Source: Bacteroidales bacterium
GTDB taxonomy: Bacteria; Bacteroidota; Bacteroidia; Bacteroidales; F082
Assembly: GCA_017630195.1 (NCBI GenBank)
Contig: JAGBVS010000021.1
Span: 39,262 to 103,261 of the forward strand
DNA length: 64,000 nt
Reading direction: 5' to 3'
Both the position numbers and the translations under genes were made by a program. The notes under the pieces were generated by a model. That model saw only the letters and a program-made list of their open reading frames with translations. It searched no databases and was not told where the DNA came from. The stretch's first letter is position 1; every line of letters starts with the position of its first letter. This document shows positions 10,014 to 63,987 of the stretch, piece by piece.

Positions 10014-10826
10014 TCAAAGAACCTCTTTGATTCTTACGAGTTTTTCGAGTAGTGGTTCCACTAATTCTAAACGAAGCATATTAGCTCCGTCAGATTTTGC
10101 TTCTGATGGATTTGGGTGAGTTTCCATAAAAAGTCCGTCAGCGCCTACCGCTATAGCGGCTTTAGAAATCAGTTCTATGAGTTCAGGTTTGCCACCAGTC
10201 ACACCAGAAGTCTGGTTTGGCTGTTGTAACGAATGGGTTACATCCATAATAACAGGGACGTTACATTGCTGCATATCATAGATATTTCTATAATCAACGA
10301 CTAAATCCTGATAGCCGAAGAAGTTACCTCTTTCTGTAAGCATCACAGAATTATTTCCCATTTGTTGAACTTTCTCCACTGCGAACTTCATCGAAGCCCC
10401 TGACAAAAACTGTCCTTTTTTGATATTAACTGTTTTTCCTGTTTTTGCAGCGGCTACCAACAAATCGGTTTGTCTGCACAAGAATGCCGGAATCTGGAGT
10501 ATATCAACATATTGAGCCGCCAATGATGCTTCTTCCACGGCATGTATGTCAGTGACGACAGGAATGTTAAATTCTTTTTTGATTCCAGCCAAGACATTAA
10601 GAGCCTTCTCATCTCCTATTCCCATAAACGAATCCAAGCGAGAACGATTAGCCTTACGGTATGAACCTTTGAAAACCAATGGAATGTTGTAAGATTCACA
10701 AATCTTGACTAAATGTTCTGCTATTTTGTATGGTGACTCTTCATCTTCAATGACGCAAGGTCCGGCGAGAAGGAAGAATCTATTTTCTTTAAGATTTTTA
10801 AGGAATGGGAAATGAGAATGTTCCAT
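10014..10826 (-). CDS. kdsA: 3-deoxy-8-phosphooctulonate synthase
   Basis: 270 aa with KdsA-typical segments LLAGPCVIE, FKGSYRKANRS, DVTHSLQ. Confidence 0.93.
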   Translation of the reverse strand: MEHSHFPFLKNLKENRFFLLAGPCVIEDEESPYKIAEHLVKICESYNIPLVFKGSYRKANRSRLDSFMGIGDEKALNVLAGIKKEFNIPVVTDIHAVEEASLAAQYVDILQIPAFLCRQTDLLVAAAKTGKTVNIKKGQFLSGASMKFAVEKVQQMGNNSVMLTERGNFFGYQDLVVDYRNIYDMQQCNVPVIMDVTHSLQQPNQTSGVTGGKPELIELISKAAIAVGADGLFMETHPNPSEAKSDGANMLRLELVEPLLEKLVRIKEVL

Positions 10827-10830
10827 ATTG

Positions 10831-11346
10831 TTATTTGTTATAATATTTTAACAATTCAGCGAATGCTATTTTGAACCAAGGTGTATAATTTTGAGGGTTA
10901 TTTTTTATGTCAAGATTTATGTTTTCCATGGTTTCATATTTATATGAAGCAACTTCCTCGGCATTTATCTTTGGCATTTCGTCAGTTGTTCCAACAAAGA
11001 CATGGTCTATCTCATGTTCCATAAGTCCTTGTGTGACATCTGCTTTATATGTAAAATAAAAAATTTCTTCAAGTTGACATTTCATACCCATCTCTTCTTG
11101 GAGGCGGCGTGTTGTGGCTTGTTCGAGAGACTCTTCGTGACGAGGATGCGAACAACAAGTATTAGTCCATAATCCGGGAGTATGATATTTAGAAAAAGCT
11201 CTCTGTTGAAGCAACATTTCACCTTTAGTATTGAACACAAATATAGAGAATGCGCGATGCAACTCAGCTTTCACATGAGCTTCCATCTTCTCCATCAAGC
11301 CTATAGGATTATCGTCAGCATCAACGAGCACTACGTATTCTTGCAT
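10831..11346 (-). CDS. idi: Isopentenyl-diphosphate delta-isomerase, type 1 (Nudix fold)
   Basis: HRAFSIFVFN plus GLWTNTCCSHP (catalytic Cys) plus an EHEIDHVF segment; 171 aa. Confidence 0.9.
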   Translation of the reverse strand: MQEYVVLVDADDNPIGLMEKMEAHVKAELHRAFSIFVFNTKGEMLLQQRAFSKYHTPGLWTNTCCSHPRHEESLEQATTRRLQEEMGMKCQLEEIFYFTYKADVTQGLMEHEIDHVFVGTTDEMPKINAEEVASYKYETMENINLDIKNNPQNYTPWFKIAFAELLKYYNK

Positions 11347-11349
11347 ATT

Positions 11350-11398
11350 TTATAGTTTAAAGTTTATAGTTTAAAGTAGTTTAAAGTAGTTTAAAGTG
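11350..11398. repeat. Tandem word repeat (t)agtttaaagt, about 4 copies, directly upstream of the idi start
   Basis: Read directly: tatagtttaaagt ttatagtttaaagt agtttaaagt agtttaaagt. Confidence 0.9.
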
Positions 11399-11470
11399 AT
11401 GGATACAATTCCCTTTATGTTTATAAACTTCAAACTACTTTTGCCTTTATTCATTAGTCTTTAGACTTTA

Positions 11471-12544
11471 TCAGACATTAAATCTGATATTCAAAATATC
11501 TCCGTCTTGTACGATATAGTTTTTACCTTCCACACGGAATTTGCCGGCTTCTTTCACAGCGGCTTCAGAACCGTATTTAAGGAAATCGTCGGTGCTCATG
11601 ACTTCAGCTCTGATGAAACCGCGTTGCAAATCGGAGTGAATCACGCCGGCAGCAACAGGAGCTGTATCGCCGATATGTATTGTCCAAGCGCGTGTTTCGT
11701 CTGTTCCTGTTGTGAAAAATGATTGTAACTTGAGAGTTTGATAAGCATAACGAACGAGTTTATTGACACCAGGTTCTGTAAGGCCAGCGTCTTCCATGAA
11801 CATAGCTTTATCATCGTCGTCGAGTTCTGCTATTTCAGACTCCAATTTACCAGCGATGATTATCATTTCGTCGCCTTCTTTCAACGAAGCCTTCACTGCT
11901 TCTGAATATTTGTTACCTGTGAGAGCAGAAGCGTCGTCAACGTTGCAAACGTACATAATAGGTTTTGCTGTAAGCAACTGAATATCTTGGATATATTTTT
12001 TATCTTCTTCTGCCACTTTTGCATCACGGGCGTTCTGCATATTTTCAAGAGCCTCTTTATACACGGTAAGCACTTCGTATGCTTTTTTATTGTCTTTCTC
12101 GCCGTTCTTCATAAGTTTTTCAACACGTTGCAACTTACGGGTCACGAGGTCGAGGTCACGCACTTGAAGTTCTAAGTCAACGAGTTCCATATCGCGGACC
12201 GGGTCAACAGAGCCTTCGCTATGAGGAACGTTTTCTTCGTCAAAACAACGAAGAACATGAATGAGAGCATCAACGGTTTGGACCTCAGCGAGCAATTTAT
12301 TACCAACGCCTTCACCACCTTTTGTCAATCCAGGCAAATCGACTATTTCAACAGTTGCCGGAACGATTCTCTTTGAGTGAGAAATATTGTCGATTAATTT
12401 AAGACGTTCGTCACGCACTTCGCACATACCAATGTTTGTCTTTGTAGCGAAACCGCCTATTTCAGCTTTGGTATTTGATATACAATTAAATATAGTAGTT
12501 TTTCCTGTATTGGTCAAACCAATGATTCCACAATTCAATGCCAT
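11471..12544 (-). CDS. ychF: Redox-regulated ATPase YchF (Obg-like GTPase family)
   Basis: G1 motif GIIGLTNTGKTTIFN, and a C-terminal TGS-like region (HSDLQRGFIRAEV). Confidence 0.95.
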   Translation of the reverse strand: MALNCGIIGLTNTGKTTIFNCISNTKAEIGGFATKTNIGMCEVRDERLKLIDNISHSKRIVPATVEIVDLPGLTKGGEGVGNKLLAEVQTVDALIHVLRCFDEENVPHSEGSVDPVRDMELVDLELQVRDLDLVTRKLQRVEKLMKNGEKDNKKAYEVLTVYKEALENMQNARDAKVAEEDKKYIQDIQLLTAKPIMYVCNVDDASALTGNKYSEAVKASLKEGDEMIIIAGKLESEIAELDDDDKAMFMEDAGLTEPGVNKLVRYAYQTLKLQSFFTTGTDETRAWTIHIGDTAPVAAGVIHSDLQRGFIRAEVMSTDDFLKYGSEAAVKEAGKFRVEGKNYIVQDGDILNIRFNV

Positions 12545-50538: not shown

Positions 50539-51366
50539 TTAATTCAACCTCACCATCCCCGCCAACTGAACAAAATAATCATTCGACCAGATATCCAACT
50601 CCTTTGGATTGCGCACAAAAGGAAGTACATCCTCTTTTACTTGCTTTATATCAGCTGTAGAAAGGCGTTCTTTCAGCTTCTCCTTGAATTGTTCTAGAGT
50701 AATATCTTCGTCATTAAACTGCTTGCATCTTTCAGCCAAATGTACAAAATCCAGGGGCACATTATGGCGTACATACCATTCAAAGTCGTACCAATCGCGT
50801 CCCTTTACTCGGTTTTTCCACGCGCGATATACCAGGGCGTGCATCTTGCCGGCAAACAGATCGGATAGAGTGAAGCAACGAGTCATGAATGAATGAGGCT
50901 GCAACAACAGTTTTTGCTCAGTCTTAAAATTAAGTGGAGGACAAGTATCAACCTCTATCTTGATTTTAATAGATTTCTCTGTTTGAAACATAACATCATA
51001 GACATCGGTATTGTCCTTTAGAAAGGCAGACTCAACCTTGCCGAAATTCTTCTTATCCTTCTTCTTGATTTCTACTTCTCGTCCAACTATAGCAAACGTA
51101 TCAATTATAGGTTGGAAATATTTGCTGAAATCAAATGCATCATCCTGTGCTAGCAGAGAAAAGTCCATATCTTCACTAAAGCGTTGCAACCCATGAAAGA
51201 TTCTCAAACAAGTACCGCCATAGAATGCTGCAGATTCAAAAAATCCACCACTATACAAACCTGCAAGAATCACCTGTTGGTTTACTTCAAAAATAGCGTT
51301 TCGCTTATTCTGCTCTGTCATCAGATCATATCGTGACAACATGCTATCGTAAATTTCATTCTTCAT
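50539..51366 (-). CDS. abiEii: AbiEii/AbiGii-family nucleotidyltransferase toxin (type IV TA)
   Basis: 275 aa. GGTCLRIFHGLQRFSEDMDF is the typical NTase motif (GG..L....R.S.DlDf). The start overlaps the abiEi stop by 4 nt. Confidence 0.85.
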   Translation of the reverse strand: MKNEIYDSMLSRYDLMTEQNKRNAIFEVNQQVILAGLYSGGFFESAAFYGGTCLRIFHGLQRFSEDMDFSLLAQDDAFDFSKYFQPIIDTFAIVGREVEIKKKDKKNFGKVESAFLKDNTDVYDVMFQTEKSIKIKIEVDTCPPLNFKTEQKLLLQPHSFMTRCFTLSDLFAGKMHALVYRAWKNRVKGRDWYDFEWYVRHNVPLDFVHLAERCKQFNDEDITLEQFKEKLKERLSTADIKQVKEDVLPFVRNPKELDIWSNDYFVQLAGMVRLN

Positions 51367-51989
51367 CGTCTTAGAAACTTTAATACGGTTGCAATAGAAT
51401 CGACCTTCTTACCGACCTTTATATACTCTTCAAAAATATTAACGTCAAAATTATAGAATTCATCCATATCCATTCGGATATCATGTTCAAGATAGTTTTC
51501 AACATCCTTCATAAAACGCAGATTTACCTTGGATGAATTTGCTATCAGGTCGCACAAAGCCTTTTCGGGCGATGCTATCAAGAAAGCATATTCGCCCTTA
51601 TGAATACTTCTTACTCCAACAGAGAAAGCAGCTCGGGAAATATACTTGTAATCGTAATTACCAATAGGAGTCTGAAAACTTCGTGAATGCTTTATCGTCA
51701 TAGACTGATGTGTATACACAGCCTCTGGAATTAATCCATAATATCTTAATGCTGTTGACATAGAGATATATGAAGGAGCATAAAGATGATTGGCTATCAA
51801 TTCATTTGAAAGTGTCTTTCCGGAATGTTCAGGATTGACAACATAGAGCCCCCTCTTCAATCTTATGATATATCCGTTCTTCTCGAGCCAAACAACCTTC
51901 TTATCTGCAGACTTGAGCTCAGGATATAGCGATTCGATGACTGAAGTCGTTACTGGGATAGCTCCTATTTCCTTTAATTGTCTATTCAT
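51363..51989 (-). CDS. abiEi: AbiEi-family antitoxin (type IV TA)
   Basis: 208 aa with an N-terminal winged-helix region (LEKNGYIIRLKRGLYV), located directly upstream of abiEii. Confidence 0.8.
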   Translation of the reverse strand: MNRQLKEIGAIPVTTSVIESLYPELKSADKKVVWLEKNGYIIRLKRGLYVVNPEHSGKTLSNELIANHLYAPSYISMSTALRYYGLIPEAVYTHQSMTIKHSRSFQTPIGNYDYKYISRAAFSVGVRSIHKGEYAFLIASPEKALCDLIANSSKVNLRFMKDVENYLEHDIRMDMDEFYNFDVNIFEEYIKVGKKVDSIATVLKFLRR

Positions 51990-52676: not shown

Positions 52677-52692
52677 CTCAATAAATTGAGTG

Positions 52693-53199
52693 ATGAGAAA
52701 ACAGATAGCGAACATAATTACAGCAAGCAGAATTTTAAGCAGTATTTGTCTATTGCTCAGTCCTGTTTTTTCCATTAGCTTTTACATCATATACATATAT
52801 TGTGGAATTACGGATATGGCAGACGGAGCAATTGCAAGGAGAACAAAATCCGACAGTGAATTGGGAGCAATATTAGACACAGTTGCCGACATTGTATTTG
52901 CAGCAGTGTGTTTTGTAAAGATACTGCCATCAATGCAATTTCCTGTTTGGTTATGGATTTGGATTGTCATTATAGCCATCATTAAAATAGGCAATTTTGT
53001 TTGGGTTTTGATTTGCAACAAAAAGCTGATATCCCTACATACCATTTTGAATAAAGCCACAGGATTTTTATTATTTCTTTTCCCCTTAACACTCGGTTTT
53101 ATTGAACCCGTCTATAGCTCTGCAGCAGTATGTCTCATGGCGACATTGTCGGCAATCGATGAGATGTGGCATATAAGGATGAGAAAAGAAGGTGTTTAG
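52693..53199 (+). CDS. CDP-alcohol phosphatidyltransferase family protein (small, PgsA-like)
   Basis: The signature D-x2-DG-x2-AR-x8-G-x3-D-x3-D is present as TDMADGAIARRTKSDSELGAILDTVAD. It is a polytopic membrane protein. Confidence 0.85.
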   Translation: MRKQIANIITASRILSSICLLLSPVFSISFYIIYIYCGITDMADGAIARRTKSDSELGAILDTVADIVFAAVCFVKILPSMQFPVWLWIWIVIIAIIKIGNFVWVLICNKKLISLHTILNKATGFLLFLFPLTLGFIEPVYSSAAVCLMATLSAIDEMWHIRMRKEGV

Positions 53200-53507: not shown

Positions 53508-54533
53508 ATGGTTAATACTTTTAATATAAGTAATAGGCGTTATTTAGGAAATAAATATAAGCTCCTTGATTGGATAAAGAGTATTGTTAATGAAAACTGT
53601 ACTAATGTTCAATCGTTCTTTGATGTATTTTCTGGAACAGGTAGTGTCGCCTCTGCATTTATTGATAAAAAATTAGTGGTATGCGACTTGATGAAAAGTA
53701 ATTATTATGCTGCTTTATGTTGGTTCTCTCCTGAAAATATCGATAGAGATAAATTAGCTAGGCTTATCGAAGAATATAACGCACTCGACACAGCACTTGA
53801 AGATAATTATATGTCTCAAAACTTTTCGGAGACATATTTCGACAAGAAGACATGCCAAAAGATTGGGTATATCAGAGATGATATAGAGAAGAAACTTATG
53901 GATGGCATTGTCAATAAAAGAGAGCATGCCTGTATTATCACCTCATTGTTTTATGCAATGGATAGAATTAGCCATACATGCGGTCATTATGATTCATTTA
54001 TACGAGATGGTAGGTACGAAGGATTCTTGGAACTCAGAATGCCAGATAATGACTATCCTCTGAATGATAATAATCATATCTATTGTGCAAATAGCAATGA
54101 TATAGCTGAATTGGAAGATGTTGATATTGCATATTTGGATCCTCCTTATAATAGTCGCCAATATTGCGATGCATATCATTTGCTGGAGAATGTTGCACTT
54201 TGGACTAAACCTGAGGTATATGGCATTGCAAGAAAGATGGATCGCACTAATATGAAGAGTAAATACTGTAAAAGTATACAAGCTGCCATTGCTCTTGAAG
54301 ATCTTGTTCGAAAATTGAGATGTAGATATATCCTATTTAGTTATAATAACAACGGGAAGAAATTACAATGCAGAAGTAATGCAAAACTAACAGACGAAGA
54401 AATCATAAGAATCCTTTCCATAAGGGGAGATGTGCAAGTTTTCACTACTGAATACAAAGGCTTCGAAGCTGGATATGAAGCCAAGAACAAAGACAACCAA
54501 GAAAGACTCTTTTTATGCAGCGTAAACAAATAA
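53508..54533 (+). CDS. D12-class N6-adenine DNA methyltransferase (M1 of a type IIS system)
   Basis: RRYLGNKYKLLDWI, motif I FDVFSGTGSV, motif IV AYLDPPYNSRQY. Confidence 0.85.
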   Translation: MVNTFNISNRRYLGNKYKLLDWIKSIVNENCTNVQSFFDVFSGTGSVASAFIDKKLVVCDLMKSNYYAALCWFSPENIDRDKLARLIEEYNALDTALEDNYMSQNFSETYFDKKTCQKIGYIRDDIEKKLMDGIVNKREHACIITSLFYAMDRISHTCGHYDSFIRDGRYEGFLELRMPDNDYPLNDNNHIYCANSNDIAELEDVDIAYLDPPYNSRQYCDAYHLLENVALWTKPEVYGIARKMDRTNMKSKYCKSIQAAIALEDLVRKLRCRYILFSYNNNGKKLQCRSNAKLTDEEIIRILSIRGDVQVFTTEYKGFEAGYEAKNKDNQERLFLCSVNK

Positions 54534-55444
54534 AGAATTATATATCATCGCCATTGAATTATATCGGAGGTAAGGCTCGTATTTTAGATCAGATACTCCC
54601 CCATATGCCTTCGGATATAGATATTTTTGTTGATTTATTTTGTGGCGGATGCAATGTGGGTATGAATGTATCTGCAGATTATACTATTTATAATGATATA
54701 TCGAAGCCACTTATAAGTTTGCTAAAGGCATTTAAAAGAATGAATAACGAGACAATAATAAATAGGATCAACGCTCTCATTAATGAATTCGGTCTCAGTA
54801 AAACACGTAATCATAACTTTAAATTTTATGGTGGCGATGCTAATAAGGGAGTTTCTGCTTATAACAGAGAAAAATTTCTCTTGTTAAGAGAACGTTTTAA
54901 CTCTCATCCCAAGAAAGATAATCAATACTATATTTTATTGTATACATTGATATTATTTGGATTTAATAACCAATTAAGATTTAACGATAAAGGGGAGTTT
55001 AATCTTCCTGTTGGCAAACGAGATTTTAATACCGCAATCGAAGCAAAACTTGTTAAGTTTTTAGACGCACTTCGCATGCAGCCACATGAATTTCAGACGA
55101 AGGATTTTAGAAAATTTAATTTTGCCGATTTAACAGAGAATAGTCTTGTTTATTGCGATCCTCCGTATCTGATTACAACAGCAACATATAATGAGAAGGA
55201 TGGGTGGACGGAACAAGATGAACGAGACCTTTTCGCCATACTTGATAAACTCACAGAAAAGAGAATTAGATTCGTTCTAAGCAATGTTCTCCATCATGAA
55301 GGGAAAGAGAATTCATTACTTATAGAATGGATAGGTCAGCATAATTACAGAGTTCATAATCTGTTTATGGACTATCATTACAGTAATTATCAAAAGAAAT
55401 CAAAGAAAGCAGAATCGCAAGAGGTCTTAATAACAAATTACTAA
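54515..55444 (+). CDS. Dam-like D12-class N6-adenine DNA methyltransferase (M2)
   Basis: LNYIGGKARIL, FVDLFCGGCNVG, VYCDPPYL. The start overlaps M1 by 19 nt. Confidence 0.85.
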   Translation: MQRKQIKNYISSPLNYIGGKARILDQILPHMPSDIDIFVDLFCGGCNVGMNVSADYTIYNDISKPLISLLKAFKRMNNETIINRINALINEFGLSKTRNHNFKFYGGDANKGVSAYNREKFLLLRERFNSHPKKDNQYYILLYTLILFGFNNQLRFNDKGEFNLPVGKRDFNTAIEAKLVKFLDALRMQPHEFQTKDFRKFNFADLTENSLVYCDPPYLITTATYNEKDGWTEQDERDLFAILDKLTEKRIRFVLSNVLHHEGKENSLLIEWIGQHNYRVHNLFMDYHYSNYQKKSKKAESQEVLITNY

Positions 55445-55445
55445 C

Positions 55446-57548
55446 ATGGCTGAGTACAACAAGTTTATAGGGAAATACGAAAGAATTCCATATAGTTCGT
55501 TTGTTTGGAAATTTGGTACAACATCCTTTCGAACCCGAGAGTTTAATAGAATGACCGAATGGCAACTCCAATTACTGGATGACTTTTGGAAGAAACCAGA
55601 AAATAAAGATCAAGGTTGGGAGAAAAAATATATAGCTACTGATCAATTAGATATCTACGAAATAAAGAATAGATATTATGATTGGCTTGTTGAAAATGGT
55701 TTCACAAGAGGTGATGATAAGGTAAAGTATAAAGCTGCTCGAGAAAAAACGAGTGGATTATATGATATGGGGCTTATTAATGAAAACCATCGTCTTACAG
55801 ATGTTGGTCATAATTTATTGCAACTATCTGCCGATGGTGAGGCTTTTTTAAGAAAAACCCCATTAAACATATCTGAAGACTCTTTTCTATACCTCAAGCA
55901 ACTTCTGAAATTGAGTTCAAATGACACTGGTAATACAGTGCGCCCATTCATTGTCGTTTTGTATTTATTGTCTAAACTAGACTATTTAACTTATGAAGAG
56001 TTTAGATATCTAATGCCACTATGTACATCTTCATTCAATACTGAATATATTTTGAATTGTATTCAGGAAAATAGGGATAAAGCAAGTGGAATCGACAATA
56101 TAATTATTGACTTTTTGCTGAATAAAAGTAATTATCAAGAAGGACTTAAACGATTCATTGAAGAACCATTCTCAGAAGAATTGCTACTATCTGTTGGAAT
56201 GAACAGAAAAAGTGCCGATTATGATCGAGCATACATTCCTGTTTATCAAGAAATGTATGCTGTTTATATGTTAAATGATTCTTCGCGAATATATCCACTT
56301 TTCTTATCACTTAATAAATTGTCTACATCTATTAAGTGGAAGACAATAATGTTCAATACCAGCCTTAAAGCAGCAGTAAAAAAAGATCCAGAAGGTAGCC
56401 TAATACCGTTGCCTGCTATTATTACGCAATCAGAAGTGTCCTTCAAGGAGTTCTTCTATTTGACCATGCATCTAAATAAGGCAAAATCGATGCTTGAAGA
56501 TTATCTTGATCTGAATAGACGTTATTTAGGATTAACAAACTGCTTCATCTTTGAAGATGATCAAGTACGGCTGGATATCGTACCCAAACACTTTTTTAAT
56601 GCCGCAATCAATGAATTGTATAATCAAGCTTACGAGGAGTGTGATCTGTTGTTTGCAGATTGCACTATAGATAGTATTTGCCCTGCATTAACTTTTGATG
56701 AAAAACAAATTATCGATGGTATCAACAAAGAATTAGGAATCCATATAGATAGTATCGAAGAGGCTTACGATGAAGTTGACAAAGTTAGATACGACCGTTT
56801 TAATAAGTTAATTGACGAAAAATTTTCGGACGAAAAACTTTTAAAATTACTTAATAACTTTGACAATAGGACTGATTCTGAGATTTGTCAGATGGTGACT
56901 GATAATGCCGATATTCCTACAATATTTGAATATATACTTGGTATAATATGGTATAAAGTTAGTGGAAGAGAAGGCAAGATTCTCGACTATTTAAAATTAT
57001 CTCTTGATGCGAATCTATTACCTATAACCCACGCTGCTGGAGGGGAAGCTGATATTGTCTATGAGTATAAAGAAACAACAGATTATCCAAAACATAGTTT
57101 ACTGTTAGAAGCGACTCTTGCAGATAGTACCAATCAGCGCAGAATGGAAATGGAGCCAGTTTCAAGACATCTTGGCAATCATCTATTGAGGACTGGTAAC
57201 AGAAATAGCTATTGTGTATTTGCAACTAGTTATTTGCATATCAATGTAATTGGAGATTTCCGTATGAGAAAAATGGTAATGTATTGTGATCCACAGGATA
57301 CAAGTAAATATGTCTCGGATTTGAAAATTATGCCACTTTGCACCAATGATTTAAGATGTATTATTGAAAAGAAGATTTCATATGCTCAATTATATAAACA
57401 TTTTTGTATAGCATATGAATCTCAAGAAATGCATCCTCAGAAATGGTACGATGAATATGTCTGCATAGAGAACTCTAATCTATTCTATAATTTTGAAGAC
57501 CACCCCATGTGTATGGTTGCAGATGTAAAGGTAAAATATAATGAATAG
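55446..57548 (+). CDS. Type IIS restriction endonuclease, AlwI/BstNBI/PleI/MlyI family
   Basis: LLPITHAAGGEADIVYEY ... LLLEATLADSTNQRRMEMEPVSRH closely parallels, from memory, the catalytic region of N.BstNBI (LQPVTHAAGNQPDMEIIYE ... GEVTTSKGATQFKMESEPVTRH). The gene starts 2 nt after the M2 stop. Confidence 0.8.
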   Translation: MAEYNKFIGKYERIPYSSFVWKFGTTSFRTREFNRMTEWQLQLLDDFWKKPENKDQGWEKKYIATDQLDIYEIKNRYYDWLVENGFTRGDDKVKYKAAREKTSGLYDMGLINENHRLTDVGHNLLQLSADGEAFLRKTPLNISEDSFLYLKQLLKLSSNDTGNTVRPFIVVLYLLSKLDYLTYEEFRYLMPLCTSSFNTEYILNCIQENRDKASGIDNIIIDFLLNKSNYQEGLKRFIEEPFSEELLLSVGMNRKSADYDRAYIPVYQEMYAVYMLNDSSRIYPLFLSLNKLSTSIKWKTIMFNTSLKAAVKKDPEGSLIPLPAIITQSEVSFKEFFYLTMHLNKAKSMLEDYLDLNRRYLGLTNCFIFEDDQVRLDIVPKHFFNAAINELYNQAYEECDLLFADCTIDSICPALTFDEKQIIDGINKELGIHIDSIEEAYDEVDKVRYDRFNKLIDEKFSDEKLLKLLNNFDNRTDSEICQMVTDNADIPTIFEYILGIIWYKVSGREGKILDYLKLSLDANLLPITHAAGGEADIVYEYKETTDYPKHSLLLEATLADSTNQRRMEMEPVSRHLGNHLLRTGNRNSYCVFATSYLHINVIGDFRMRKMVMYCDPQDTSKYVSDLKIMPLCTNDLRCIIEKKISYAQLYKHFCIAYESQEMHPQKWYDEYVCIENSNLFYNFEDHPMCMVADVKVKYNE

Positions 57549-57569: not shown

Positions 57570-58520
57570 ATGAGTAGAATAGAAACTGCTATAAATAATC
57601 TCCTAAACCAGACAAATGGAGTTATCAATTCTCGCATTGAGGAAGTGCGATACTCTGTTGATGTACCTGAAACTAATGCAAAAGGGTATTGCTATTGCTT
57701 GAAGGTAGATGGTAATGGGAATCTAAGACTTCAAGATTTGATAGAGTATATTGATACAAGGATTGTTGATTATGCAATCCCTAAAAAAGAAATTGATGAG
57801 GCTGGAGATGATTATAATAGAACGGGGTCTACTCGTAAAATATTAGAATTACAAAAGAAGGCAGAGAATCTTTTTACAGATTTGAAGAAGACTGGCGAAG
57901 GAGGAGAAATACTATTATATATCCTTACGCAAGATATTCTTAAATTACCTCAGCTTATAAGCAAGATGTCGTTAAAAACTTCAGGTAAGTTACATTATCA
58001 AGGAGCTGATGGCATTCATTTTAAATACAATGAGACAACAAAAAATCTTGAGCTGTATTGGGCAGAGTCAAAGATGTATAAAGACTTAAATACGGCAATA
58101 ACAAGATGCTTTGAGAGTATAAAAGGGTTCTTGCTTGACCCACAAAGTTATACTTCAACACAAGAACGAGATATTGATTTAATAACCTCAAATATCCATC
58201 AAAATATAAATAATGAAGAATTAGAAAATGTTCTTCTGACATTCTTTGACAAGGATAGCGAGCTGTCTAATAATTTAGTATATAAAGGTATTTGCTTTAT
58301 AGGTTTTGATTATGATAAATATCCAACAAAGGACGATATAACAAAGACCACCAATGATATAAAGAATGCAATACTTGCTGAATATGATAATTGGCATAAT
58401 ACTCTAGGTGAAAAAATCAAAATGCATATCAACCTAGATAAGAAAGAAATACATATATTTTTAATGCCATTCCCTTCGGTAGAAGACTTTAGAAAACATT
58501 ACCTCGAAACAATAAAATAA
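57570..58520 (+). CDS. hamA: Hachiman HamA (DUF1837 nuclease-like protein)
   Basis: HYQGADGIHF...LYWAESKMY (D...ExK core of DUF1837); 316 aa, located directly upstream of a helicase with a TAATG overlap. Confidence 0.8.
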   Translation: MSRIETAINNLLNQTNGVINSRIEEVRYSVDVPETNAKGYCYCLKVDGNGNLRLQDLIEYIDTRIVDYAIPKKEIDEAGDDYNRTGSTRKILELQKKAENLFTDLKKTGEGGEILLYILTQDILKLPQLISKMSLKTSGKLHYQGADGIHFKYNETTKNLELYWAESKMYKDLNTAITRCFESIKGFLLDPQSYTSTQERDIDLITSNIHQNINNEELENVLLTFFDKDSELSNNLVYKGICFIGFDYDKYPTKDDITKTTNDIKNAILAEYDNWHNTLGEKIKMHINLDKKEIHIFLMPFPSVEDFRKHYLETIK

Positions 58521-61030
58521 TGTTAGTAGAAAAGGTATATAATTTAAATAGTTTTCAACGACAATATGAAGCGTTGCTTACATTGTCTGTGTGTGACACT
58601 ATTCCCAATCTAATTTGGAATAAAGATAAGTCAACTTTGTTATCTCTAATAGATTGGGACAATATGTTAAGTATTGCTTCTCTATTTTGCTATAGCGAAG
58701 AAAACAAATATGTTGATGCGGCCTTACGTATTGCCCAAACTTGTATTTTGCAAGAAAGTTGTACCGAGAATCAGAAAAATGCGTCTGCATTTATTTTAGA
58801 TACTTTAACTAATAAGCCGGCAATTAAACTTGCTATTACTAAGAAATATTTAAAAGAGAGCTATAAAGAGCACCTACCTTTTTCTCTAAAACTTCAACAA
58901 TGTAAGTCGGATTATGAGCACACAATTATTATCAATGAGGACATCATTACTTTAAACAGATTCCAGAAAGAGGTATATGCAGCTCACAAAAGCAACGAAA
59001 CTATTAGTATCTCGGCTCCCACATCCGCTGGAAAATCTTACATTCTTTGTACCTTAATTCTAGAGGAATTGTCCAAAGGAAATAAAAATATTGTTTATGT
59101 TGTTCCTACAAGAGCTCTTATAAGCCAAGTAGAAGCAGATTTAAGAGCATTATTAAAGCAGTATAATTTAGAGGCTCAAACAAATATTACTACCGTTCCT
59201 CCACAAGATGTGATCAATACTGAAATCTCTAATGTATATGTCTTTACACAGGAGCGTCTACACTGGTTCTTATTTGGAAATAATTCGACTAACATCGACT
59301 TGCTTATTGTTGATGAGGCTCATAAAATTGAGGATGGGAATAGAGGTATTTTACTACAACAAAAGATTGAAGATGTTGTAAAAGCCAACCCTAATGTAAA
59401 AGTCTATTTCTCAAGTCCTTTTACATCAAATCCTGAAATATTATTAGATAATGTTATAAATAATAGCCGAAAATGCAAGGTCAATACGCAATTTGTATCA
59501 GTAAATCAGAACTTATTGCATATATCGCAAGTACCACGAAAAATTAAAGAATGGCTCATTCATTTATGTACGATTGAAAAAACTATTTTATTGGGCAAAA
59601 TAGTTATGACCGATCGTCCCACTTCTGAATTACATAAGATTGTTCACACTGCATATCAAACATCAAACAAGGGTGGTTGTTTAATATATAGCAATGGTGC
59701 GGCAGAGGCTGAAAAAACAGCTATCTTATTGTCTAATTTATTGACTGACATCAAAAATACCCCAGAGATTATAGATCTTATTAAATTAGTTAAAAAGACA
59801 ATTCATAAAGATTATGTTTTAGCAACAGTGTTACGTAAAGGCATAGCTTTTCATTACGGAAATATGCCATTGCTAATAAGGGAGGAGATAGAGAGACTTT
59901 TTTCTATTGGCAAAATAGATTATTTAGTTTGTACATCCACTTTGTTGGAAGGAGTGAATCTCCCCGCAAAATCAATCATTATCCGAAAACCAACAAGAGG
60001 TAAAGGTAAGCCTCTTAATCAAAATGATTTTTGGAATTTAGCAGGTAGAGCAGGAAGATGGGGAAAAGAGTATAGTGGCAATATATTTTGTATTGCACCT
60101 TCTGACTGGGATGTTCAGCCAGAGCCGAATAAAACGAAGCAGGAAATCAAAAGAGCAATTAATACTATTGAAAATAATGGAGATGAATTATTAGAATATA
60201 TTCAGAATGAGTCTCCTAGGAAGGTTGCTGAAAGTAGACAAGATTTAGAATCTGCATTGGGGTATTTTTATATAAAACATATTATAGATAAAGAAGAATT
60301 TCCATCCGACTCCTTTTATGTAAAATTAATGCAAAAACTCAAAAATATTAACACTAAAATAACATTACCTAGTTCAATACTTAAGAAGAATCCTGGGATA
60401 TCACCTTTGGCACAGCAAACCTTGTTTAATTATTTCAATAGTCACATAAATACAATAGAAGAGTTAATACCTGTTTACCCTAATGATAGCAATGCATTTG
60501 ATGAATACACAAAACTTGTAGGTATTATAGGTCAAACGATATCATGTTATCCTGATGAATTAAATGCAGCAAGAGCGATCTTATTGATTAATTGGATGTC
60601 TGGCAAGCCATTATCATATCTTATTGATAAAAGTTTTAAATCTTATCAAAAGAATGGATACAATAAACCATTACCAGTAGTTATTAGGGAGGTAATGGAA
60701 AATGTTGAGAATTTCGTAAGATTTAAATTTGCAAAAGACTCTTGTTGCTATGTTGATATTCTACGATATGTGCTTGAACTAAATGGTAAACAAGATTTAA
60801 TAGATAATATTCCTCAATTAAGTTTATGGCTAGAGTTTGGTGTTTCACAAAAGACCCACCTCTCATTATTGGCTCTCGGGTTAAGCCGTAATACCGTACT
60901 AGAATTAGCGCAACTAACGGTTTCGACAGAGAAATCAATTGAAGAGTGCTTAACTTGGCTGAGGTCGTTAAATCTTGAAGAATTAGATTTATCACCGATA
61001 ATAATTAATGATATAAAAAAGGTTTTGTAG
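58520..61030 (+). CDS. hamB: Hachiman HamB (DEAD/DEAH-box SF2 helicase)
   Basis: Walker A SAPTSAGKSY, LIVDEAHKI (DEAH), helicase C motifs CTSTLLEGVNLPA and AGRAGR; 836 aa. Confidence 0.85.
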   Translation: MLVEKVYNLNSFQRQYEALLTLSVCDTIPNLIWNKDKSTLLSLIDWDNMLSIASLFCYSEENKYVDAALRIAQTCILQESCTENQKNASAFILDTLTNKPAIKLAITKKYLKESYKEHLPFSLKLQQCKSDYEHTIIINEDIITLNRFQKEVYAAHKSNETISISAPTSAGKSYILCTLILEELSKGNKNIVYVVPTRALISQVEADLRALLKQYNLEAQTNITTVPPQDVINTEISNVYVFTQERLHWFLFGNNSTNIDLLIVDEAHKIEDGNRGILLQQKIEDVVKANPNVKVYFSSPFTSNPEILLDNVINNSRKCKVNTQFVSVNQNLLHISQVPRKIKEWLIHLCTIEKTILLGKIVMTDRPTSELHKIVHTAYQTSNKGGCLIYSNGAAEAEKTAILLSNLLTDIKNTPEIIDLIKLVKKTIHKDYVLATVLRKGIAFHYGNMPLLIREEIERLFSIGKIDYLVCTSTLLEGVNLPAKSIIIRKPTRGKGKPLNQNDFWNLAGRAGRWGKEYSGNIFCIAPSDWDVQPEPNKTKQEIKRAINTIENNGDELLEYIQNESPRKVAESRQDLESALGYFYIKHIIDKEEFPSDSFYVKLMQKLKNINTKITLPSSILKKNPGISPLAQQTLFNYFNSHINTIEELIPVYPNDSNAFDEYTKLVGIIGQTISCYPDELNAARAILLINWMSGKPLSYLIDKSFKSYQKNGYNKPLPVVIREVMENVENFVRFKFAKDSCCYVDILRYVLELNGKQDLIDNIPQLSLWLEFGVSQKTHLSLLALGLSRNTVLELAQLTVSTEKSIEECLTWLRSLNLEELDLSPIIINDIKKVL

Positions 61031-61084
61031 TTACTATTATAAAGCACCTTTAGCATGCAACTTATAAAATTATAATGAATACAA

Positions 61085-62866
61085 ATGATAGAATTAACAG
61101 ATTTAAAATTTAATACATGTGCTTATTTTTATAAGATAAAAGAAGGATGTTTGATTACAGACAATGAAATCAAACAAATGTTAATTGAAGTTACTTCCAC
61201 AAAAATAAGAAAATATCTATTTGATATATGTCGAGTAGAAAACAATGGAGTTAAGTATTCTCTTCGAATATTCAAGGACAAACCTAAAATGCCTGGATTT
61301 ATTGCTATTGAGGACAATAATTGGAAAGAACAAAAGATTGGTTACTATTTGTTTATAGAATATTCTAATCATGTTGCGATATTTAAAAAAAACTGTATAA
61401 TTCCCAAAGATATTTCATCAAAATTTGAAAGCATTAATTACAACAAATTAATTAATCTATATACTGACAACAACACAGAGTTTAAAAAAATAAACATGCA
61501 GAATCTAGATGGTTCTGATCATGCAATGCGTTTCAAATCATATGGAGCACTTAACTTAAAGGAAAATATTTCTCCAATAGGTGCTAGTCGTTACTATATC
61601 AGATCTCTAAAAGGTAATAACGGAAATGATCATTTTGCTCTGACATTGAATACATCTAAAATACATGATTTTAAAGACATCTATACTTTGGATGAAATAT
61701 GCAAATGGGTAAAAGCAACTATTGATAAATTGAATGATAATAATATCGTTGCTTCAGATTTTCTCAATATCTTTGCTAAACCTGTAAAATATGAGGATAT
61801 ATATAATAATCTTCAGCCAACTTCTCTTCTGTTATTTACCGATTTAATAATGTTGCTAATAGATAAAGGTGCTAAATTTTCTTATTGTGATAAAAACAAA
61901 ATAATAAGTAATAAAGTGCTTTGTAGAGGATTAAGCATGGTACAACGTTGTTTCGAATCCGTAAATCGAGAAGATAAGGACGGTAAGATTTATTATTATA
62001 CGGGGCATAATAACTGTATTGAAATTAAATTACTTAAATCAGGCATCAAACTCATAAATTCAAAATGGGATAATATATCAATTAGTGAAACACCTGATGA
62101 AGAGTACGATGGAACGTTGTTAGATTTAATAAATAAAAATTCATTATTTAATCTTTATTTTACAGATACAGAATTAATATATAATAATCGCGTTTTATTC
62201 AGAGATACAAAGTTGTTGAGCAGCGCATATCATTTCCTTGATATATTAAAAGTTAGAATGAACGGAGAATTTTTATATGAAAAGCATAAAAAAAGTTCTC
62301 CTCGAGACTTAGAAAATTGGCACGAGCATAGTATTTTTAAATATGTAGAATCAACTTTTATGCCCGAGTATAGATATTTCATATGTGATGATTGTGGAAT
62401 AGAATGGGCTGATCACATTGGAATATCAGAAAATAGAATCACATTTTTCATTGAAAAGCATAAAACATCGCTGGATTCGGCATCGGATTTTCAAGATGTC
62501 GTTGGACAAGCTTTAAAAAATATAGCTAACCTTATGCCTTCAAAAAATCAATTAGATGAGAAACGAGAACTATGGAATATGAACTACTTAACATCGAATA
62601 TTCCAAGATTTAGGTCTAGAGAAGGTAATGTTAATGATGCTATTAATGAATGGTTAAAGAATAATCAAAGACCTAATTGTCAACGAGAGATATGTCTGGT
62701 TGTAGACTTTATAGAAAAGGAAAGATTTAAAAACCAACTCGAATCACTTATGAATGAGCAAGAAATTGATCATGAAGCAGAATTGAGAATGAGACTTTGG
62801 CTATTATCTTCATTTGTAAATACATGTCTGGAATATGGAGTTACTCCATTGATTTATTGTCGTTAG
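61085..62866 (+). CDS. Uncharacterised 593-aa protein (candidate defence component)
   Basis: Clean ORF 55 nt downstream of hamB on the same strand with the same low GC. The only motif seen is FICDDCGIEWADHIGISENRITFFIEKHKTSLDSASDFQ, which loosely resembles the PD-(D/E)xK core. The overall layout vaguely recalls the sporadically distributed TIGR04141/DUF6119 family, but this is unverified. Confidence 0.5.
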   Translation: MIELTDLKFNTCAYFYKIKEGCLITDNEIKQMLIEVTSTKIRKYLFDICRVENNGVKYSLRIFKDKPKMPGFIAIEDNNWKEQKIGYYLFIEYSNHVAIFKKNCIIPKDISSKFESINYNKLINLYTDNNTEFKKINMQNLDGSDHAMRFKSYGALNLKENISPIGASRYYIRSLKGNNGNDHFALTLNTSKIHDFKDIYTLDEICKWVKATIDKLNDNNIVASDFLNIFAKPVKYEDIYNNLQPTSLLLFTDLIMLLIDKGAKFSYCDKNKIISNKVLCRGLSMVQRCFESVNREDKDGKIYYYTGHNNCIEIKLLKSGIKLINSKWDNISISETPDEEYDGTLLDLINKNSLFNLYFTDTELIYNNRVLFRDTKLLSSAYHFLDILKVRMNGEFLYEKHKKSSPRDLENWHEHSIFKYVESTFMPEYRYFICDDCGIEWADHIGISENRITFFIEKHKTSLDSASDFQDVVGQALKNIANLMPSKNQLDEKRELWNMNYLTSNIPRFRSREGNVNDAINEWLKNNQRPNCQREICLVVDFIEKERFKNQLESLMNEQEIDHEAELRMRLWLLSSFVNTCLEYGVTPLIYCR

Positions 62867-63150
62867 ATTTATGCTTAATTAGGGAACGATATACATGTTT
62901 ACACCAAACTATAATTTTAAATGGCATCATCCATAATTTTGAGGTAGGTTTATCGTGAATAAAAATAGTTACTGCTTCATAATATAAACAAAAGAACTCC
63001 ACTAATTTCAATGGAATTCAATATGTTTTAGGTTCATTTAAATTTTGAATAAAATCTTGATTTTGTGTAAACATACTATACCCCTACTCTATCTCTCTAT
63101 TTAAAACGATGTGTGATGAGTGGCATGGTGCAAAAGACAGAATCTTCCTC

Positions 63151-63987
63151 CTACACATCCAAATACAACCAACGCTTTTCTTTCCAAAGATTGTTGTCAA
63201 GGTCGCATATCTCCTGGCCGCCGAGCTCGAGCATCTTGTCATGGAAGTCTTTGTCGTGGCCTCGGACAAAGCTGTGGGTTAGCTCATGGATGCAGAGCGC
63301 CTCGAGACTCTTCTCGGGCAGCTGCACACAGCCGGCGCAGAATGTGACGTCGTGGGTATCAAAATCGTATAAAGCCCAAAATCCCCTGAGTGCCTTCACA
63401 ATGATGCAATTTCTGTACTGGACATTGATACGCTCCGACACTCTTTGCAGCACCTGCGGTATGACTACCTGCGCTCTCTTGAATATCACCTCCTTCACCT
63501 TCTTGAGAATTGTCTCTTGAACATAGATGTAATTGAGATTGGCATTCTTAGGAAATGTGACGTAGCAGTCGCGGCCGTCGAGACGTGTGGTGTAACTGTC
63601 GCTGCTGCCTCTCGTTACCAGCAGCCTGAAATGGTGAGTGTCGAGTGTATAACCGTCATGAAACCTGTTCTTGCTGTCGCACGTCCACTCTTTGTTGACA
63701 CGCAGAATGTTCTCTTCGGCAAAGTAGAACAATTCGGCAAATGTGTCTTTCAGGTCACCAGACACGACAGTTTCGTTTATGTTATACCTCAACTGCGGGC
63801 TCTTCGGGCCATTGAGACTCTTCATAACTTTCACATTACCAATGCCGTCAATAAAACGGCTCATGCTGTTGCAATCCACAACATCCTTCAGTTGCTCTAT
63901 ACGCTCTTGTACCCATGCGCAAAACTTAGTGTTTCTTTTAGAATGACCGATATTGTTATAGGAGACCTGGTACAAGTCTTTTGCCAT
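63151..63987 (-). CDS. DUF45/YgjP-like (M48-type) zinc metallopeptidase
   Basis: LRGFWALYDF...VTFCAGCVQLPEKSLEALCIHELTHSFVRGHDKDFHDKM contains an HExxH...H..F motif as in DUF45. GC content here is much higher than in the preceding island. Confidence 0.7.
   Translation of the reverse strand: MAKDLYQVSYNNIGHSKRNTKFCAWVQERIEQLKDVVDCNSMSRFIDGIGNVKVMKSLNGPKSPQLRYNINETVVSGDLKDTFAELFYFAEENILRVNKEWTCDSKNRFHDGYTLDTHHFRLLVTRGSSDSYTTRLDGRDCYVTFPKNANLNYIYVQETILKKVKEVIFKRAQVVIPQVLQRVSERINVQYRNCIIVKALRGFWALYDFDTHDVTFCAGCVQLPEKSLEALCIHELTHSFVRGHDKDFHDKMLELGGQEICDLDNNLWKEKRWLYLDV

Follow-up and report, generated by a model that had tools for sequence, protein, structure and literature searches.

A candidate defence gene of the PDC-S71 family at the 3' end of a restriction-modification and Hachiman array in a Bacteroidales genome

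Several described systems come close to a gene that lies directly behind a Hachiman operon in a genome of the Bacteroidales. The phage defence candidates (PDCs), of which 145 single- and multi-gene examples have been catalogued, were nominated because they lay within BREX, DISARM or Type I restriction-modification (R-M) systems and had passed filters for mobilome and housekeeping functions (Payne et al. 2024, 10.1101/2024.01.29.577857). The Hachiman genes hamA and hamB are accompanied in type II systems by a facultative third gene, found in 3.8% of Hachiman systems, whose product HamC is a small NTF2-like protein of the DUF3223 family (PMC8565338). The EH domain of ZorC binds double-stranded DNA and acts together with the Snf2-type protein ZorD (PMC11946911). 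The gene compared with these systems here lies in a window of 64,000 nucleotides (nt) of contig JAGBVS010000021.1 (assembly GCA_017630195.1, positions 39,262 to 103,261 of the forward strand). It is an open reading frame (ORF) at 61085..62866 on the plus strand, complete from its ATG start, encoding 593 amino acids (aa) followed by a stop codon. It is supported by the list of ORFs, by a PADLOC match, by homologues and by a structure predicted with AlphaFold2 (AF2). Coordinates given below without a locus number are those of the window.

The ORF is probably a self-contained single-gene member of the candidate defence family PDC-S71, resident in a defence island and placed at the 3' end of an AlwI R-M and Hachiman array in a ruminant-gut Bacteroidales genome; a mechanism for it is proposed below on the basis of predicted structure and conserved residues.

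Membership in the PDC-S71 family

By its profile match the ORF belongs to PDC-S71, a family already catalogued as a defence candidate, and is not a new or orphan component of Hachiman. It matches the PADLOC-DB v2 model PDLC05077 ('PDC-S71') from end to end with E=7e-145 and 482 bits, residues 1-593 being aligned with positions 1-588 of the 589 in the model. It shares with the other members a length of about 590-600 aa, a single-gene layout and a position in or beside defence systems, and no feature sets it apart from them. The first-pass annotation had called the ORF unannotatable. This holds for Pfam and NCBIfam, neither of which gave a credible match, and fails for PADLOC-DB. The name 'PDC-S71' does not occur in the literature searched or in the text supplements of the paper on the PDCs. 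A sequence-profile search of the PDB returned ABO glycosyltransferases through a chance DxD-like match, and this candidate was rejected.

The ORF is clearly a genuine gene, with about 1100 clusters of homologues that are almost all full length. A word-indexed search found 178 homologues, nearly all of 590-610 aa and unnamed. An exhaustive profile search covering 1.84 billion representatives gave 1115 clusters at 50% identity with E<=1e-3, 428 of them with E<=1e-30; the best 150 of the 1115 are nearly all full length, at 580-640 aa. When one genome per GTDB species was scanned, relatives were found in 284 of 185,579 species representatives, which is a lower bound, as the scan relied on two motifs. 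At the species level the family is dominated by Bacteroidota and extends to Gamma- and Betaproteobacteria (Pseudomonadota), Campylobacterota, Bacillota, Acidobacteriota and Planctomycetota; in all it is scattered over seven phyla or more. No relatives were found in 50,697 phage records (INPHARED, searched by tblastn) or in IMG/VR (searched by motif and tblastn), and tblastn against plasmids gave just eight matching records, most of them the helicase fusions described below. Two neighbouring ORFs take the place of an intact S71 gene at three loci (L103, 9968-10663 with 10697-11719; L077; L079), probably as frameshifts or pseudogenes, which would be expected of an island gene that is dispensable and may be toxic.

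A loose resemblance of the C-terminal block of the ORF to the TIGR04141/DUF6119 proteins, which are similar to PDC-S71 in size class and patchy distribution, had also been proposed. One family member, UniRef100_A0ABS7Z9X2, is indeed named 'Sporadically distributed protein, TIGR04141 family' in UniRef; at NCBI it is 'hypothetical'. The proposal found no backing in 79 different family members, which make up the sets of two alignments, A1 and A3, both headed by the window protein. Pfam and NCBIfam scans of these members, run at E<=0.1 (Pfam) and E<=1 (NCBIfam) for A1 and at E<=0.01 for A3, gave no match to DUF6119, TIGR04141, HamA, RdgC or nuclease models, the scans for TIGR04141 (NCBIfam) and PF19614 (Pfam) having been made without a positive control for the presence of these models in the libraries. 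A fusion-seeded search mentioned below likewise returned no DUF6119 protein, and literature searches on RdgC in defence and on TIGR04141/DUF6119 found nothing relevant. The ORF itself has no match to DUF3223 in Pfam at E<=1 and no PADLOC match besides PDC-S71, which rules it out as HamC.

Predicted domains and conserved residues

The AF2 model of the full-length protein, computed from an alignment of 40 sequences, has a predicted local distance difference test score (pLDDT) of 87.5 and a predicted template modelling score (pTM) of 0.71, and in this model the protein consists of two domains. A Foldseek search of the PDB with the full-length model gave one significant match, Escherichia coli RdgC (2owl_B, E=5.5e-5, probability 1.0, 294 columns), followed by Iml3/CENP-L and Whirly, which have the same DNA-binding fold. 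Because a model of residues 392-593 alone misses RdgC, Iml3 and Whirly, the RdgC-like part can be assigned to the beta-rich N-terminal region of about 390 residues (61085..62254, plus strand), of which some 300-390 residues share the fold. There is no sequence match to RdgC (PF04381) in Pfam scans of the ORF or of the 79 members. RdgC is a housekeeping protein that forms a DNA-binding ring and modulates RecA without catalytic activity of its own. It differs from the ORF protein in having no C-terminal catalytic-looking domain and in not being an island gene. The RdgC-like fold suggests that the N-terminal half of the ORF protein is a DNA-binding module.

The C-terminal alpha/beta domain, residues 392-593 (62258..62863, plus strand), was modelled separately with a pLDDT of 94.3 and a pTM of 0.91. 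The predicted elements are a helix at 417-428, strands at 431-434, 444-448 and 451-458, a helix at 466-478 and a strand at 533-540. This predicted order, alpha-beta-beta-beta-alpha-beta, would fit the pattern of the PD-(D/E)xK superfamily, which includes HamA. Conservation in the family is highest within this domain, in the block F432..Q470 (62378..62494, plus strand), FICDD-x3-EWADHI-x8-FFIEKHK-x-SLDSASDFQ, as seen in alignments A1 and A3. It is present as the first-pass annotation quoted it, except that its second spacer has 8 residues and not 9. Residues 431-470 read YFICDD-CGI-EWADHI-GISENRIT-FFIEKHK-T-SLDSASDFQ, and the conserved stretch runs on as GQALKN to residue 479 (window position 62521). 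Ahead of the domain core lies the 'SEKG' loop motif with E399-K400 (62279..62284, plus strand); both residues are invariant in alignment A1, and in A3 K400 is invariant and E399 is present in at least 90% of the sequences.

Among members that are only 23-30% identical, K400, D435, D436, E440, D443, K458, A466, Q475, K478 and N479 are invariant, and E399, E422 and C434 nearly so. In the predicted structure D443 opens the second strand (beta2) and K458 closes the third (beta3), an arrangement like the classical D...K pair of HamA and the other PD-(D/E)xK proteins. The additional invariants E399-K400, D435, D436, E440, Q475 and K478-N479 form a signature distinct from theirs. The acidic and lysine cluster, together with the core topology, hints at a divergent, metal-dependent nuclease-like domain, an assignment that is tentative. 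The broader idea of a nuclease-like D...K core, which had been raised from the letters of the block, is plausible as a hypothesis.

The module also occurs fused to other domains. In the plasmid tblastn search, DEAD/DEAH-box proteins of about 1023 aa were found whose C-terminal half is a nearly whole PDC-S71 module; they are encoded on Bacillus megaplasmids and on plasmids of Bradyrhizobium and Rhizobium. Such fusions to a superfamily 2 (SF2) helicase lie at L022:4486-7557 on the Bacillus bombysepticus plasmid CP126687.1, directly after gajA-gajB, and at L023:3613-6681 on the Bradyrhizobium japonicum plasmid NZ_CP066352.1. The fusion protein WIL44903.1, encoded directly after GajA-GajB, matches PADLOC PDC-S71 over residues 473-1000 (1.5e-34) and carries ResIII, DEAD and SWI2_SNF2 matches in its N-terminal part; WP_248889879.1 matches PDC-S71 over residues 554-1020 (3.3e-41). 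The fusion retains D436, E440, D443, H456, K458, the SAS motif, Q475, K478 and N479. The fusion subfamily is small, as a search seeded with the fused module gave 32 matches. The combination of an SF2 helicase with PDC-S71 appears to be previously undescribed. It speaks for an activity directed at DNA to which a translocase can be coupled, without a specific tie to Hachiman; the fused helicase has no similarity to HamB. A second kind of fusion is represented by P0216 (1018 aa), in which about 430 additional N-terminal residues, including a Peptidase_S41 domain (C-terminal processing protease), precede a full PDC-S71 module.

The following mechanism would be consistent with the two predicted domains. 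The N-terminal RdgC-like module would bind DNA, possibly as a clamp dimer of the RdgC type, and would thereby place the C-terminal alpha/beta domain on the DNA of an invading or replicating phage or plasmid. The cluster formed by E422, D435/D436, E440, D443, K458, Q475 and K478/N479 would then coordinate metal and cut nucleic acid. Either the invader would be destroyed or the infection would be abortive.

Neighbouring genes and rival explanations

The genes around the family members were compared at 80 species-level loci, in which ORFs were called and the neighbours within four genes were clustered. No conserved partner gene was found at these loci, the neighbours varying in size, strand and spacing. 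The biggest clusters of neighbours are tyrosine-integrase-like proteins (6 of the 80 loci), HamB-like helicases (4 of 80) and Type I R-M subunits (3 of 80). In a search with seven helicase seeds, a helicase lay within two genes of S71 at only 3 of 78 loci, and thus there is no general pairing with helicases. A PADLOC scan of 133 neighbours, taken in aggregate and without counts per protein, returned many different defence families, a diversity that is therefore qualitative. In ten annotated contexts the immediate neighbours are overwhelmingly defence systems. The partners differ even among the closest relatives. The one with 81% identity follows a Dcm methyltransferase and the Gabija genes GajA and GajB; the one with 69% identity follows a methyltransferase, an AAA_5 protein and RE_LlaJI (an LlaJI R-M system) and precedes an integrase; and the one with 55% identity lies within a capsule-biosynthesis locus with a TIR protein about 5 kilobases (kb) upstream. 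At 47% identity the surroundings differ again: a giant SIR2_2 protein 9 nt downstream in one case, AAA_15/DUF3226, methyltransferase and HATPase_c_3 proteins in another, and in a third a capsule locus that has AbiH and McrBC in its vicinity. In another homologue AbiH is directly upstream and HicAB is nearby. The family therefore has no obligate partner gene and usually stands beside unrelated defence systems. Of the roles that had been suggested for the ORF, that of an independent single-gene defence protein agrees with its full-length membership in PDC-S71 and with these varied surroundings. The role of an anti-anti-defence sensor, which had likewise been suggested, gained neither support nor contradiction from the data.

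Three independent Bacteroidota homologues (L001:10001-11797, L020:10001-11815 and L108:8001-9797) lie in the middle of loci for capsular or other surface polysaccharides and on the same strand as these, amid glycosyltransferases, epimerases, EpsG and Polysacc_synt proteins, and are accompanied by AbiH, DUF4145 or TIR genes. The capsule loci of Bacteroidota may be insertion sinks or co-regulated hosts for defence genes.

A complete Hachiman system adjoins the S71 gene at 3 of the 80 genome loci: in Aliarcobacter (L091) S71 is followed after 4 nt by hamA and after a further 3 nt by hamB, in Winogradskyella (L076) the corresponding gaps are 16 and 8 nt, and in a member of the Clostridiales (L074) Hachiman is adjacent with looser spacing. 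HamA and HamB were confirmed by PADLOC at L091 and L076, and at L074 by tblastn alone. In Algoriphagus (L061) a Hachiman-like PDC-M23 system with a HamB-like protein lies 2 kb from S71. A second sample comprised 80 metagenome loci of a proteobacterial clade. Among the 53 of them in which the flank extends for 3.5 kb or more on one side of the gene, two contigs (L126 and L127) share one Hachiman arrangement with looser spacing, and L139 has a HamB-like helicase. The order of the genes is not fixed, S71 being downstream of hamB in the window and upstream of hamA elsewhere. The Hachiman-adjacent S71 proteins, including that of the window, are 28-40% identical to one another, belong to different clades and have sister taxa without Hachiman. 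By our own estimate Hachiman accounts for about 1% of defence systems. Three to five adjacencies in about 130 informative loci amount at most to a mild enrichment, which is typical of defence islands. Next to S71, Hachiman recurs as some other neighbours do, in an association that is labile in evolution. The suggestion that the ORF is an accessory third component of Hachiman finds no support as a general rule, although a loose affinity of S71 for Hachiman may exist. The variable position of S71 has a parallel in HamC, which is upstream or downstream of hamAB in few systems; it differs from HamC in that most S71 genes are nowhere near Hachiman.

One of these loci deserves a description of its own. 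In the Aliarcobacter metagenome-assembled genome (MAG), L091:9161-19450 is a packed same-strand array with gaps of 3-12 nt or overlaps, which encodes a 273-aa protein with weak mad3/PbeC matches, S71, HamA, HamB, a 492-aa protein without assignment and a 901-aa protein with matches to Mokosh helicases of the MkoA/MkoC type. This array may be a composite defence operon.

Several observations weigh against a free-standing, nuclease-like defence protein. No published experiment shows defence for any member of the PDC-S71 family. The RdgC match has template modelling scores of 0.22/0.37 and a root mean square deviation of 8.9 Å, and such low scores support a likeness of general fold only. The C-terminal domain alone gave no significant Foldseek match (best E=0.056 in the PDB and 0.012 in BFVD), and the low-probability lists contain HincII, HamA (8vxy_A), CdiA-CT, R2 RLE, Hantaan endonuclease, VRR-NUC, RecB-type nucleases and Cas4. 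The putative nuclease assignment draws on motif and topology, and the canonical acid of (D/E)xK is absent, position 456 being His in most members and Ile, Val or Cys in the clade of the window; the other invariant acids, D435, D436 and E440, could stand in for it. The resemblance to HamA/DUF1837 that had been noted in the block was not borne out. When the C-terminal profile was aligned by hhalign to a HamA profile of four sequences the probability was 0.7%, the Foldseek match to 8vxy_A has a non-significant E of 0.41, and the ORF matches neither the Pfam nor the PADLOC HamA models. A 'HamA-like core' would at best be a shared superfamily fold. In one subclade (P0008, P0026, P0028, P0029, P0004 and P0015) the EH_Signature domain of ZorC (PF15611) matches below threshold, at 17.5-23.2 bits with a cutoff of 27.5 and a best E of 5e-5, residues 471-539 being aligned with positions 271-331 of the 423 in the profile. 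This segment is the helical part after K458, about residues 466-534 of the window protein, and the matches are a hint that part of the C-terminal domain might be a non-catalytic DNA-binding element. Finally, as neither a promoter motif nor a terminator separates the ORF from hamB, it could be expressed together with Hachiman.

On such grounds the ORF protein might be a non-catalytic sensor or adaptor that binds DNA in the manner of ZorC or RdgC and recruits or regulates a separate nuclease or helicase effector, or else the host RecA or RecBCD. The N-terminal fold resembles that of a non-catalytic protein, the EH_Signature matches point to a domain that in ZorC works with ZorD, the fused ATPases of the S71 module are of the SF2 type and also match Pfam SWI2_SNF2, and no nuclease structure is matched significantly. 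However, so dense a group of invariant acidic residues and lysine (D435, D436, E440, D443 and K458, together with E399/K400 and E422) is seen more typically in metal-dependent active sites than on surfaces that bind DNA, and there is no conserved partner gene that might serve as the effector. Furthermore, no ZorAB genes accompany S71, ZorC is missing from the best 50 Foldseek matches of the full-length or the domain model, and the EH_Signature matches stay below the Pfam threshold and are absent from the window protein. A sensor or adaptor role is therefore unlikely. Still less likely is a function outside defence, in which a mobile-element or DNA-metabolism gene (an accessory of recombination, replication or partition) hitch-hikes in variable islands. 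Integrase-like genes are the commonest recurrent neighbours and also stand beside the 69% relative, and the RdgC-like fold, the very low content of guanine and cytosine (GC), the patchy distribution, the three copies in capsule loci rather than in classical defence islands and the lack of a published defence phenotype would all fit such a function. Against it stand the absence of relatives from the phage collections and their scarcity on plasmids, the defence systems that dominate the annotated contexts and the way in which the PDCs were picked out, from within BREX, DISARM or Type I R-M operons and after filtering for mobilome and housekeeping functions (10.1101/2024.01.29.577857). Even the copies in capsule loci travel with AbiH, DUF4145 or TIR genes.

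It may also be asked whether the ORF works with Hachiman as a co-transcribed third gene, its product being an accessory or back-up effector that acts on DNA unwound by HamB or fires when HamAB is inhibited. The ORF lies on the same strand as hamB, which ends at 61030, and the spacer between them (61031..61084, plus strand) is 54 nt long; the first-pass annotation had described the third ORF behind hamB correctly and given the gap as 55 nt. A terminator scan found no terminator-like hairpin in this spacer. A scan for the Bacteroidetes -7 motif TAnnTTTG found none within 240 nt upstream of the ORF, the nearest being at 60724; such a motif is present 82 nt upstream of hamA. Since the spacer contains neither signal, co-transcription of the ORF with hamAB is possible, as far as patterns of this kind can indicate. 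The tight juxtapositions in other phyla (L091 and L076), the looser ones (L074 and L126/L127) and the PDC-M23 system near S71 in L061 point in the same direction. As four Hachiman-adjacent proteins fall in different clades, the pairing arose repeatedly. In addition, the fusion of the module to an SF2 helicase elsewhere suggests a functional coupling to helicases, and with HamC a facultative third gene of Hachiman is already known. In its widest form this idea would make S71 a plug-in effector, a DNA clamp with a nuclease, for helicase-based immunity, which has been captured repeatedly, at operon spacing, next to Hachiman in at least four phyla and also next to Gabija, and which here would extend or back up HamAB as a co-transcribed third gene. 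However, about 96% of the sampled loci are without Hachiman, the gene order varies, the closest relatives (81%, 69%, 55% and 47% identity) have other neighbours, each Hachiman-adjacent protein has sister taxa that lack Hachiman, and the fused helicase is unlike HamB. A partnership with Hachiman, in the window or in this wider form, is thus improbable, nearly to the same degree as the sensor or adaptor role, and a single-gene defence protein of the PDC-S71 family is the preferred explanation of the ORF.

The island in the window and the meaning of the family

The ORF is the last gene of a same-strand array in which the AlwI R-M genes come first, hamAB second and the PDC-S71 ORF third. The R-M genes (53508..57548, plus strand) encode a restriction enzyme of the AlwI family, which is type IIS-like (RE_AlwI, 2.3e-73), preceded by two D12-class N6-adenine methyltransferases (two Pfam MethyltransfD12 matches) whose frames overlap or abut. 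The Hachiman system, of type I, occupies 57570..61030 on the plus strand, with hamA at 57570-58520 and hamB at 58520-61030; HamA matches Pfam at 2.7e-57 and PADLOC HamA1 at 4.3e-109, and HamB matches PADLOC HamB1 at 1.8e-275.

The GC content, taken in segments of 500 nt, is 0.36-0.42 over most of the window and 0.29-0.34 in hamAB and the island. In the ORF it falls to 0.24-0.31, the lowest of an already AT-rich island, which bears out the very low GC that had been noted for it. The compositional boundary that had been placed shortly after the ORF is also real. GC rises to 0.45-0.50 from about 63000, some 150-280 nt past the stop codon, within a convergent intergenic region (62867..63150) between the ORF and a minus-strand gene for a YgjP-like metallopeptidase (63151-63987, Pfam match). 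A terminator-like hairpin of the minus strand was found there by the terminator scan, at 63019-62994. On longer contigs the YgjP-like metallopeptidase beyond the boundary has 334 aa, and at L011:12067-14895 it is followed by genes for a GDSL-like lipase and a REase-ARP/PDDEXK_13 protein, so that defence-type genes may continue past it into the flank of higher GC.

The same island is present on nine metagenome contigs. To the left of the R-M genes, two minus-strand ORFs of 275 and 208 aa (50539-51989) correspond in length and position to AbiEii and its upstream partner of 208 aa on same-island contigs, where AbiEii has a Pfam match and the 208-aa partner has none. If they are an AbiE toxin-antitoxin pair, they would lengthen the defence island leftwards. 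Between this pair and the R-M genes stands a lone ORF of 169 aa (52690-53199; 127-168 aa on related contigs) that resembles CDP-alcohol phosphatidyltransferases, an odd fragment of lipid metabolism in a defence island. A protein identical to that of the PDC-S71 ORF has been deposited twice, as MBO7209682.1 ('hypothetical protein', from a Bacteroidales MAG) and as MBO5809457.1, from a MAG labelled Methanobrevibacter sp., in which it is probably a mis-binned contaminant.

In practical terms, a report of the gene as a new or orphan component of Hachiman would be mistaken. PDC-S71 is a large and structurally distinctive family that has been catalogued and whose function is so far only predicted. 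The present analysis gives a first anatomy of it, with an RdgC-like half, a conserved C-terminal domain that has no solved structural relative, a helicase-fused variant and a census of its members. If the family were shown to defend, it would represent a new single-protein effector architecture, in which D435, D436, E440, D443 and K458 would be the residues of interest for mutation.

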